Positions 20,972 to 61,900 of a DNA stretch of 64,000 nt are shown here, one piece after another. The DNA is from a virus. Made by a program: the position numbers and the translations under genes. The notes below the pieces were generated by a model, which had not been told where the DNA came from, did no database searches, and worked only from the letters and a program-made list of their open reading frames with translations. The first letter of the stretch is position 1. The number at the start of each line of letters is the position of its first letter. The stretch lies in IMG/VR virus record IMGVR_UViG_3300038468_000190, positions 32,001-96,000 of that record. One strand, written 5' to 3'.

Positions 20972-21802
20972 ATGAAACACCTTCGCATCTGGGCATTGTG
21001 CCTCCTCACGGTCTTCGGTATTTCTCGAACGGCGTCTGCGACGCGGACCGAGTCGCTCGCCCGCTGGCTCTTCGAGACGGCCAAGGAGCTTCCGCGCAGT
21101 CACGCGCCAGGCGAGACGGAGTCCGAAGAGCACGCGCGCCTCGAGCGCGTGTCGAAGGCGTACGCCCAGGCGGTCGTGCCGTACGCCGACGGCAAGGGCT
21201 GGACGGCGAGCGAGCTCGCCATGGCCCTGCTCATCCTCATCGCCGAAGAGACGAAGCTCGACAAGAGGATCCACGAGGGGACCGGGCACCCCGTCTGGCA
21301 CGAAGATCACGGCCGGTCGAAGTGCCTCGGCCAGGTGCAGGCCTCTGGCCTCGTGCCGCGCCCGATCTGGGCAACGCTCACGGGCTCGGACGACGACGCC
21401 ACGCTCCGCTGCGCCGAGGCGACGGCGACCGTGTGGGTGTCGATGGCCAAGCAGTGCGGCGTCTGGTACAGCCAGCGTGCGAGCCGGGCAAGCGTCGCGG
21501 CGACGTTCATGGCGTATGGGAGCGGCGGGAGCTGCACCCCCGGCGAGCGAGAGTGGGCGCGGGCGGACAAGTGGCTCGCCCGCATGCAAAAGCGCCCGGA
21601 CCGCTCGCCCATCCGGGGCTACCGGCGGGCGTTCCCGTCGGAGGTCCCGGACGACGTAGAGCGGGAGGCGACGGCGCTCCTCGGGAGCGAAGACTTCCGC
21701 ATCGGTCACGAACGCCGGATGGACGGCTGGGCCTTGCGGGTCGAGCGGCACGCCGACGGCAAGGTCGGCGTCAGCGTCTTTTTGGAGGACAGTCCCCAAT
21801 GA
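20972..21802 (+). CDS. Secreted protein, possible lysozyme/transglycosylase-like fold; contains a CRISPR protospacer match
   Basis: Signal peptide MKHLRIWALCLLTVFG; LIAEET...EDHGRSKCLGQV. Confidence 0.55.
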   Translation: MKHLRIWALCLLTVFGISRTASATRTESLARWLFETAKELPRSHAPGETESEEHARLERVSKAYAQAVVPYADGKGWTASELAMALLILIAEETKLDKRIHEGTGHPVWHEDHGRSKCLGQVQASGLVPRPIWATLTGSDDDATLRCAEATATVWVSMAKQCGVWYSQRASRASVAATFMAYGSGGSCTPGEREWARADKWLARMQKRPDRSPIRGYRRAFPSEVPDDVEREATALLGSEDFRIGHERRMDGWALRVERHADGKVGVSVFLEDSPQ

Positions 21803-36775: not shown

Positions 36776-38943
<2,168 letters not shown>

Positions 38944-41917: not shown

Positions 41918-42655
41918 ATGTCGCGCTACGGAAGCATCGTCTTGGGATTGGGAGCGAGCACGACGCGCGTCGTCCGGGCGACCGATCCTGCCATCCTCGA
42001 GTCGCTCGTGAACCAACAAATCACGGCACTCGGCGGGGGCTTTACGATCGTTGCTCTGACGCTGGCAGGTGCCGGTAACGGGCAAGCGTTCACGGTCACG
42101 ATCGAGGCTGGGGCGGCGGCGGCTGTCCTAGGCGGGTTTCTTGCGCCGCCGACTGTTCGGTGCGTAGCCGGATCGGATCCCGAGGCGCTTCGTGCCGGAC
42201 TCGAGTCGAAGATCACGGCTCCCGGGACGCTCGCCGACGTGCAGGTCGCCGGTAGCTCTGCCGGCAACTACTTCATGGCGATGGCGGTCTTCGGGAGCCT
42301 GCTGGCGACGGGGGCAGCGGGACCTACGGAAACACGCTCGAACAAAGGCATGCCGGCCCTGACGACCGTCAACGACGGCGATCAGGGATGCGCAACGGCC
42401 GTGACGACGACGCCGGCGGCGTCGAGCGCGGCGGGAGGCTACGTCGGCGCCCGCGTGAACGGTGTCGGCGCGACGACCGGCGACGGCACGACGGTCGGAG
42501 TCATGTGTTACTTCTCCGGGACCGGCGGAGCGACCGCGCGAGCGATGAAGGACATCGTCGCGGGCGACACCTTCCACTGGAATCAGTCCGTCGCCGGCTA
42601 CAACCTCGACGCCGCGACGGACATCATCGACTACATGTACGGCGTGGACAGCTAA
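41918..42655 (+). CDS. Paralog-family protein with a distinct C-terminal domain
   Basis: MSRYG start and LAGAGNGQAFTVTIEAG closely match the collagen protein N-terminus. Confidence 0.7.
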   Translation: MSRYGSIVLGLGASTTRVVRATDPAILESLVNQQITALGGGFTIVALTLAGAGNGQAFTVTIEAGAAAAVLGGFLAPPTVRCVAGSDPEALRAGLESKITAPGTLADVQVAGSSAGNYFMAMAVFGSLLATGAAGPTETRSNKGMPALTTVNDGDQGCATAVTTTPAASSAAGGYVGARVNGVGATTGDGTTVGVMCYFSGTGGATARAMKDIVAGDTFHWNQSVAGYNLDAATDIIDYMYGVDS

Positions 42656-60686: not shown

Positions 60687-60855
60687 CCGAAGGATTCTAA
60701 GTGAGGTCCCGGCCGGAATCGAGTGGGATCGGTTCGGGTCCCTGACGAGCTAGATCATCCATGGCGGTCGGCTGACGAAAACGCGCGAGCACCCGATTTC
60801 CTCTTCCTGACGAACGGCAATAATCACTGGAAGCACGCCTGCTGCTGGTTGCGGC

Positions 60856-61900
60856 CTGACGAACGCCATCGGTCACCGTAGGCCTTCCACGCGATGAATC
60901 AGATCCTTGCCGAGTGGTCGCACCCTCTGACGAACGCCATCGGTCACCATAGGCCTTCCGAGCGAGAGCGTTGTGCAGGCGGCCGCGGTGATGCGAGCTG
61001 ACGAACGCCATCCGTCACCCGGAGCCCTTGCGAGTAATATTGAGTGGCATGCCCGCGGGGACCTGAGTACTGACGAACGCCATCCGTCACCGTAGGCCTT
61101 CCGAGCTCGATGCGCCGGTTGCGCCTGTCGAGCCCGTGGGACTGACGAACGCCATCCGTCACCGTAGGCCTTATACGAGTCGCCCGAAAACATGGGCGCC
61201 GATGGGTGATCGAACTCTGACGAACGCCATCGGTCACCGTAGGCCTTCCGATGGCGAACGACAGGCGTCCGCACCCCGGACCGAACTGCTGACGAACGCC
61301 ATCGGTCACCGGAGCCCTTTGCGAGGTCGAGATCGAAATACGCTCGCCTCGTCCGAACTCTGACGAACGCCATCGGTCACCGGAGCCCTTGCGAGTCGCC
61401 ACCGCCGTCGAGAACGGCGAGCTCCGGAGCACCTGACGAACGCCATCCGTCACCGTAGGCCTTCCGAGAAGCAGTGCGGCGTCTGGTACAGCCAGCGCGC
61501 AACCCTGACGAACGCCATCCGTCACCGTAGGCCTTCCGAGCAGTAGCCGCGCCGGATGGATGGCGCTAACATTCGCACTGACGAACGCCATCCGTCACCG
61601 TAGGCCTTCCGAGTTTCCAACGGAGAGACTTGTACGGACAGAAAATGTCTGACGAACGCCATCCGTCACCGTAGGCCTTCCGAGTTCTCCGCCTGCGGGA
61701 CTTCCGGCACGCGATCCATCTGACGAACGCCATCCGTCACCGTAGGCCTTCCGAGCCGGAGGGCGGAGGGAATGATTCCGGAGAGACTCTCCTGACGAAC
61801 GCCATCCGTCACCGTAGGCCTTCCGAGCTTTCTTTTTCGCCTCTTTAGACCTCTGCGCGTCTTCCTGACGAACGCCATCCGTCACCGTAGGCCTTCCGAG
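60856..61900 (-). CRISPR. CRISPR array, 15 repeats and 14 spacers (34-37 nt)
   Basis: 36-nt repeat, minus-strand consensus CTCGGAAGGCCTACGGTGACGGATGGCGTTCGTCAG; plus-strand starts 60856, 60927, 60998, 61070, 61142, 61217, 61289, 61360, 61433, 61505, 61578, 61649, 61720, 61792, 61865; the seven right-most are identical and decay increases leftward, with remnants at 60742, 60772, 60807. Confidence 0.98.

Follow-up and report, generated by a model that had tools for sequence, protein, structure and literature searches.

Why would a virus carry, in a CRISPR array of its own, a guide that almost matches one of its own genes? The window analysed here is a stretch of 64,000 nucleotides from an IMG/VR virus record of 140,124 bp that is rated 100% complete, and it holds both sides of such a match. 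The features that bear on the question are listed below in window coordinates.

20972–21802, plus strand: target gene, encoding a secreted protein of 276 aa (GC3 0.89) with a signal-peptide-like N-terminus, MKHLRIWALCLLTVFGISRTASA
21449–21484, plus strand: near-protospacer of spacer 6, a 33/36 match within the secreted-protein gene; 5' flank on the non-target strand CTTGCCCG
38472–38507, plus strand: near-protospacer of spacer 11, a 35/36 match in the collagen-like fibre gene 37609–38943 (plus strand)
60807–61900, minus strand: CRISPR array with 16 repeats of 36 nt and 15 spacers
61106–61141, minus strand: spacer 11, the second guide that nearly matches the virus itself
61469–61504, minus strand: spacer 6, the sixth counted from the effector-proximal end; the minus-strand RNA starts GGTTGCGCGCTGG
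61882–63801, minus strand: TnpB-like effector ORF, 630 aa from a probable ATG at 63774, with its stop codon inside the first repeat
62029–62060, minus strand: tracrRNA-like anti-repeat in the low-complexity tail of the effector ORF, complementary to the repeat

Spacer 6 agrees with positions 21449–21484 at 33 of 36 bases, and the initial 29 are identical (blastn-short E 6e-12). The self-match is far beyond chance. A search of the 64-kb window allowing up to three mismatches recovered the spacer and this one site only, and none of 100 dinucleotide-preserving shuffles of the window gave a match to the spacer. The differences fall at plus-strand positions 30, 33 and 35 and read CGT/CGC, GCG/GCA and AGC/ACC (window/spacer), which in the frame of the target ORF are two silent changes and one change from Ser to Thr. 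Counted on the minus strand, the same three sites are guide positions 7, 4 and 2. The guide would pair with the plus, or coding, strand and is antisense to the gene. The preliminary description of this locus had reported the 33/36 match, the 29-base identity and the codon-consistent differences, and all three stand as written; the flanks that it quoted, CTTGCCCG and GCGACGGG, are also correct.

The target protein has relatives in 23 protein clusters of this virus group, and searches against Pfam, PHROG and NCBIfam gave no family. In an Atlas feature search the only hints were weak ones, to Myxococcota and to clusters that include some SLT (lytic transglycosylase) members. The 36-nt protospacer stretch contains a single variable site, compared with a gene mean of 6.6 per 36 nt, and lies at the 2.6th percentile. 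This conservation partly explains how a spacer derived from a sibling could still be recognisable in the carrier.

The array has the regular direct repeats and the unique spacers of similar length that are expected of a CRISPR array. Fourteen spacers measure 35–39 nt, the distal-most is a 13-nt remnant, and the units are spaced 71–75 nt apart except for the last. The consensus of the repeat on the plus strand is CTGACGAACGCCATCCGTCACCGTAGGCCTTCCGAG; the seven repeats nearest the effector do not differ from one another, and those at the distal end have decayed. Two repeat subtypes (..GGAAGGCCTACGG.. and ..GCAAGGGCTCCGG..) occur side by side in the older half of the array, as seen in the repeats at 60998, 61289 and 61360, and spacers 8, 9 and 10 from the effector end (61178–61359) all begin with (C)AGTTCG in guide orientation. 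Together these two observations suggest either that arrays have recombined or that a repeat boundary has shifted. Of the five newest spacers, two (61614–61648 and 61828–61864) have a GC content of 43–49%, against 66% for the genome, and may have come from elements other than siblings.

The meaning of the three mismatches depends on the strand from which the array is read. From its layout and repeat features, the array is most likely transcribed from the minus strand, which would place the differences of spacer 6 at guide positions 2, 4 and 7, within the seed. In three related loci (L013, L014 and L015) the array also follows immediately after the effector gene and shares its strand, with the first repeat overlapping the stop codon and with decay of the distal repeats; in an 81%-identical relative (L010) the contig breaks off within a repeat at the corresponding place. 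The part of the repeat that is conserved across loci is its spacer-adjacent 3' part (GTGAYGG...GTCAG in minus orientation), as expected if the mature guide consists of a repeat handle followed by the spacer. The folding energy of the repeat is −11.2 kcal/mol as minus-strand RNA and −5.1 as plus-strand RNA. The locus therefore has the layout of a type V crRNA, that is, an array co-oriented with and downstream of the effector, a guide 3' of the repeat and an anti-repeat, and it shares this layout with L013, L014, L015 and L010.

The anti-repeat recurs as well. Four loci each have one about 130–160 nt upstream of the array and on the same strand, complementary to the repeat of its own locus, and this complementarity beats 200 of 200 shuffles. 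In the minimum-energy fold of 62290–61865 the anti-repeat at 62029–62060 pairs with the first repeat (z −5.7). The anti-repeat duplexes contain 14 G-U against 5 A-C pairs (p 0.06), which favours the minus strand, although this count is biased because the duplexes were found in minus orientation. A structured RNA that includes the anti-repeat occupies the last ~135 codons of the effector ORF (61901–62290, minus strand), with an equivalent position in L013, L014 and L015. Substitutions relative to L010 number 26, 22 and 31 at the three codon positions of the last 135 codons, and 70, 49 and 181 in the core; the even spread in the tail indicates that it is constrained as RNA and not as protein. 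An Rfam search of the array and the tail gave no family.

The architecture of the effector is that of a type V or TnpB-derived protein: its N-terminus is of the IS605 OrfB type, and it combines a split RuvC domain with a zinc-ribbon TNB insert. Its domains are HTH_OrfB_IS605, OrfB_IS605 and a Cas12f1-like TNB; in Pfam, PF07282 (E 5e-15) and PF12323 (E 4.5e-12) pass their cut-offs and PF01385 falls below its own, and the NCBIfam model guided_TnpB scores 139 bits against a cut-off of 100. A database search places the protein in a family of about 43 clusters, 490–717 aa in length, with a shared layout. The matches of the family profile to known effectors are as follows.

ISDra2 TnpB: E 1e-49, over most of the core
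LaTranC: E 4e-17, over the RuvC half
Cas12f proteins: E about 1e-11, over the RuvC half
Cas12m: UnCas12m4a E 3e-6 and Cas12m E 1.5e-3, over the zinc ribbon only

The best PADLOC models are Cas12u4, at 151 bits over the full length, and one Cas12f model at 138 bits; the Cas12u4 score is no better than that of generic TnpB models, and the RuvC residues of the effector are altered. Taken together, the profile and PADLOC matches point to a TnpB-proximal type V-like lineage rather than to Cas12m. Membership in Cas12m (type V-M) was considered and rejected, given that the match is confined to the zinc ribbon, that PADLOC returned no Cas12m hit and that the full-length matches are to TnpB.

The active site is unusual. 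Aligned to 8h1j and 8iaz, the effector has E (GVEVG), R (VMRD) and E (DRE) in place of D, E and D, and so lacks the catalytic D-E-D triad, which nearly all of the ordinary TnpBs recovered in the same family search (n = 26) retain. The Arg at RuvC-II is found in every cluster of the family, and this Arg, the four zinc-finger cysteines and many other columns are invariant across 35 aligned members. A relocated Glu makes up for some replacements at RuvC-II, as in the RIIr branches (PMC10691335); the family alignment has no new family-wide invariant acidic column that could fill this role. Judged from these residues, the family has probably lost DNA cutting, and the family-wide Arg in place of the RuvC-II catalytic Glu makes interference more likely to proceed by binding than by cutting.

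Spacer 6 is not the only guide that nearly matches the carrier. The sole mismatch of spacer 11 to the fibre gene is a silent ACA/ACG transition at guide position 7, and guide 11 has the same sense as the mRNA of that gene. The two spacers together have four mismatches, three of them silent and one Ser/Thr, which is expected if the differences arose in coding sequence. All four lie within guide positions 1–7 (probability of about 0.001 for one named end), and this clustering fits the survival of only those guides that spare the carrier. The preliminary description had placed the mismatches of spacer 6 next to the seed, and the most likely reading direction of the array supports that placement. 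It had also called guide 6 antisense and guide 11 sense, which the strands of the two genes bear out, and had argued from these opposite senses for DNA rather than RNA targets. Given the TnpB ancestry of the effector, the opposite senses fit DNA targets, with two guides as a small number of cases.

The two near-protospacer flanks (..GCCCG and ..ACGGG) have too little in common to give a PAM motif. For the remaining 13 spacers there was no match in the virus's own genome, in the syntenic relative described below (G001), in the sibling fragments, or in the GenBank phage and PLSDB plasmid collections. A search of the whole array against GenBank phages and PLSDB plasmids in distant mode gave no match, and neither did an exact search for spacer 11 in IMG/VR.

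The virus genome has a syntenic complete relative, G001, of 138 kb and ~70% nucleotide identity, and G001 was found to carry neither the effector nor the repeat, which makes the module an accessory of the window's lineage. The array and effector lie in a stretch of ~11 kb (60712–71765) that has no counterpart in G001. The virus genome itself encodes a DnaB-type helicase, ThyX and a collagen-like fibre, and it encodes no Cas1; no TerL_ATPase match was found in it. Outside the window, positions 121285–125124 of the full record (G000, plus strand, locus L019) hold an ORF of 1279 aa with a Phage_integrase catalytic domain (57.5 bits). In the same 140,124-bp record, the first 100 bases recur 218 bases from the end (1–218 and 139906–140124), inside collagen-like repeat sequence, and the genome, which IMG/VR calls linear, may be circularly permuted or terminally redundant.

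We next consider where spacer 6 could have come from. Three sibling fragments (L009, L016 and L017) carry the target gene, which is 89% identical to that of the window and 91–93% identical among the fragments themselves, and all three keep the first 29 bases of the protospacer. The sites that distinguish the spacer are compared here.

Window: guide position 7 (Arg wobble) T; next two codons GCG AGC
L009: guide position 7 C; GCG AGC
L017: guide position 7 C; GCG AGC
L016: guide position 7 A; GCG AGC
G001 (outgroup): guide position 7 A; GCG AGC
Spacer 6: guide position 7 C; GCA ACC

Since the Arg wobble is T, C, A and C among the four lineages, the C of spacer 6 is a natural allele; of the five sequences, only that of the window's lineage has T at 21478 (guide position 7). 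The two other differences are of another kind. GCG AGC is present in all four lineages and in the outgroup, so the changes at guide positions 2 and 4 took place in the donor or the spacer and not in the carrier's genome, and spacer 6 would be seed-mismatched to every known relative. Spacer 6 also encodes the residues 'YS', which are otherwise exclusive to this sub-clade, and the donor, if there was one, was thus a close sibling.

The best match of spacer 6 among the relatives is 34/36, in L009 and L017. An exact search in IMG/VR gave no match, and a codon-degenerate pattern of the spacer found only L009 in the JGI metagenomes and nothing in IMG/VR or the GTDB genomes. A collection of 15 billion proteins gave no perfect target either, and the 90% cluster of the target protein has four members, all with QRAS. 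The preliminary description had seen in the differences the pattern of an orthologous gene in a sibling virus. This holds insofar as siblings exist, position 7 is polymorphic and two siblings have the C of the spacer, but no relative has GCA ACC. Perfect protospacers, which it had proposed to look for in related contigs, were found in none of IMG/VR, the JGI metagenomes, GTDB and the protein cluster. It had also held that its reading would fall if no related virus carried the spacer allele; none does, in a clade that is very thinly sampled (four lineages).

The arrays of the related loci gave little in the other direction. Spacers of L013, L014 and L015 have only short matches to the virus genome, to G001 and to all loci. 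One spacer of L014 matches window positions 42048–42063 at 16 of 16 bases, which we treated as chance, as the flank is unrelated. The assembly GCA_043956535.1 holds both L014, on a 107-kb contig that carries a homologue of the effector and an array of 12 repeats, and L016, on a 45.8-kb sibling contig; the spacers of L014 have no match in 16 kb of L016.

The chances appear about even that spacer 6 belongs, as a guide, to a TnpB-derived, type V-like CRISPR system carried by the virus and records a close relative's copy of the secreted-protein gene. Derivation from a sibling donor is the best available, if tentative, reading of the spacer. In the mechanism that we propose, the array, which lies downstream of the effector gene and its tracrRNA-like anti-repeat, would be read from the minus strand, and in each crRNA the spacer would come after the conserved 3' part of the repeat. 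The effector would read its target starting at the 5' end of the spacer. A perfectly matching relative would then be bound at the target, likely as a block to transcription or replication and not as a cut, as suggested by the family's Arg in place of the RuvC-II catalytic Glu, and the bound rival would be hindered in a co-infected cell. The carrier's own copy would be spared by its differences at guide positions 2, 4 and 7. Spacer 11, with one silent mismatch at position 7, would follow the same sparing logic.

Several points weigh against a sibling donor: GCA ACC is absent from IMG/VR, JGI contigs and GTDB, 13 spacers are matchless, and there is no Cas1. The missing donor allele is the main weakness, and it makes disarmament of the guide by mutations within the array a serious alternative. 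According to this main rival, spacer 6 was taken from the virus's own lineage or from a sibling (CGC GCG AGC) and later mutated at guide positions 2 and 4 while in the array, either by drift or because the changes relieved the carrier of harm, and is now inert against all known lineages. We regard this as possible, if on the unlikely side. It accounts for the GCG AGC common to the four lineages and the outgroup, by which the two differences are derived on the spacer side, and for a donor allele that is absent from every collection searched; moreover, spacer 6 sits at the border between the block of identical repeats and the older block of variant repeats. However, in the frame of the gene the change at position 4 is silent and that at position 2 conservative, which is not required of mutations in an array. 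When spacer 11 is included, three of four mismatches are silent, for which a rough chance estimate is near 0.05 if about 1/4 of random changes are assumed to be silent. Loss of the whole spacer through repeat recombination would also be an easier disarmament, and the clade is sampled by only four lineages. An escape of the carrier, in which the spacer was acquired from an ancestor of the same virus and the protospacer in the genome mutated afterwards, would explain why only the window's lineage has T at 21478; the mismatch of spacer 11, at guide position 7 as well, is also a silent transition. The window, though, shares the state of all relatives and the outgroup at guide positions 2 and 4, which excludes such an escape for two of the three positions and makes it improbable as a whole.

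The remaining alternatives concern what the system does now. A probably non-cutting effector could employ guides 6 and 11 to lower the expression of the secreted-protein and fibre genes of the virus itself, in the manner of TldR or CRISPRi-type repressors. The Arg at RuvC-II in 43 of 43 family clusters means that self-binding need not be lethal, and few stretches of the gene are as conserved as the matched patch of 29 nt. In TnpB and Cas12 effectors, however, R-loop formation begins at the type V seed, which is exactly where the mismatches sit. Both targets are also mid-gene rather than at promoters, they lie on opposite strands relative to transcription, and the other 13 guides have no match in the genome. 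Self-regulation is therefore unlikely, mainly because of the mismatches in the seed and the mid-gene sites. We think it very doubtful, too, that the array and effector are an inactive relic and the match a fossil without present function. Altered RuvC positions, decayed distal repeats and 13 spacers without known targets would all suit a relic, but the seven proximal repeats are identical and the effector core is biased toward third-position changes against the 81%-identical relative L010 (70, 49, 181). Many columns, among them the Arg and the zinc-finger cysteines, do not vary in the 35 aligned members, and the order of effector, array and anti-repeat is kept in distant relatives.

A guide against a sibling has a precedent, and in this sense a single spacer match is not surprising, as the pattern is already in the literature (Medvedeva 2019). 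The Saccharolobus portogloboviruses SPV1 and SPV2 carry mini-arrays that target close relatives, while the orthologous loci of the carrier are spared by point mutations (Medvedeva et al. 2019, PMC6858448). The window resembles them in having spacers from genes of the virus's own kind and an orthologous site in the carrier that differs by point changes; the role proposed for the SPV arrays is the exclusion of close relatives. Conversely, SPV1 and SPV2 have 1–2 spacers, no cas genes and repeats borrowed from the host, whereas the window has 15 spacers, its own effector and a tracrRNA-like RNA. SPV1 and SPV2 have perfect reciprocal targets in co-occurring viruses, and no perfect target of the window's guides was found. 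Taken as a viral array directed at siblings, the window shows a carrier site that is mutated or spared (33/36 and 35/36) and lacks a relative with a perfect protospacer. In contrast to SPV1 and SPV2, the virus brings its own effector and tracrRNA-like RNA, and this effector probably binds without cutting.

Among bacterial systems, Cas12m (type V-M) is described as an effector, encoded by plasmids and some prophages, that binds DNA and does not cut it (Wu et al. 2022, as cited in PMC10691335 and PMC11656645). In these citing accounts it shares with the window a small type V effector on a mobile element and an array without adaptation genes, and it is thought to silence rivals by binding; by analogy, binding by the window effector would probably resemble silencing of the Cas12m type (PMC11656645). 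The window family differs in that it matches ISDra2 TnpB far better and Cas12m over the zinc ribbon only. TldR proteins are nuclease-dead, TnpB-like repressors, some of them phage-encoded, with RNA-guided DNA binding (Wiegand et al. 2024; PMC13622181). The window effector is likewise TnpB-derived with altered RuvC residues, but TldR uses one fixed guide fused to an omega-RNA scaffold and acts at host promoters or the 5' ends of genes, whereas the window has a multi-spacer array and a separate anti-repeat. Despite the altered RuvC, we did not assign the effector to TldR, in view of its 15-spacer array and its two near-targets in mid-gene.

The array downstream of the effector and the tracrRNA-like part overlapping the 3' end of the gene are features shared with V-U4/Cas12n, Cas12f and TranC. 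The characterised effectors of these groups have a D-E-D triad and cut DNA, in contrast to the invariant RuvC-II Arg of the window family. Phages also carry type V systems against rival elements, such as CasPhi in huge phages (PMC7162821) and Cas12r of Thermus Lalka phages (bioRxiv 10.64898/2026.04.20.719267). As in the window, effector and array are phage-carried without adaptation genes, and the CasPhi and Cas12r spacers point at other mobile elements; the CasPhi and Cas12r effectors differ in belonging to other Cas12 lineages and in being active nucleases. In a 2026 preprint (10.64898/2026.09.14.751636), a myxophage 'Cas12m' (610 aa) is described next to an array of eight spacers, and its RuvC residues are reported as intact and differently spaced.

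The allele in the window and a perfect target form a ready-made pair for testing the seed and PAM rules of an uncharacterised effector family, and the same pair would test whether a rival virus can be excluded by binding alone. We tentatively suggest, as a possibility well short of even odds, that the family of ~43 clusters is a natural CRISPRi weapon, in which the tracrRNA lies inside the effector's 3' tail, the arrays silence siblings by binding alone, and silent seed mutations protect the carrier. If the sibling-donor reading of spacer 6 is true, this would be a case in a bacterial virus of spacers directed against siblings with the self spared by point changes, a logic first shown for archaeal viruses, and here it would run on the virus's own TnpB-derived and probably non-cutting effector.
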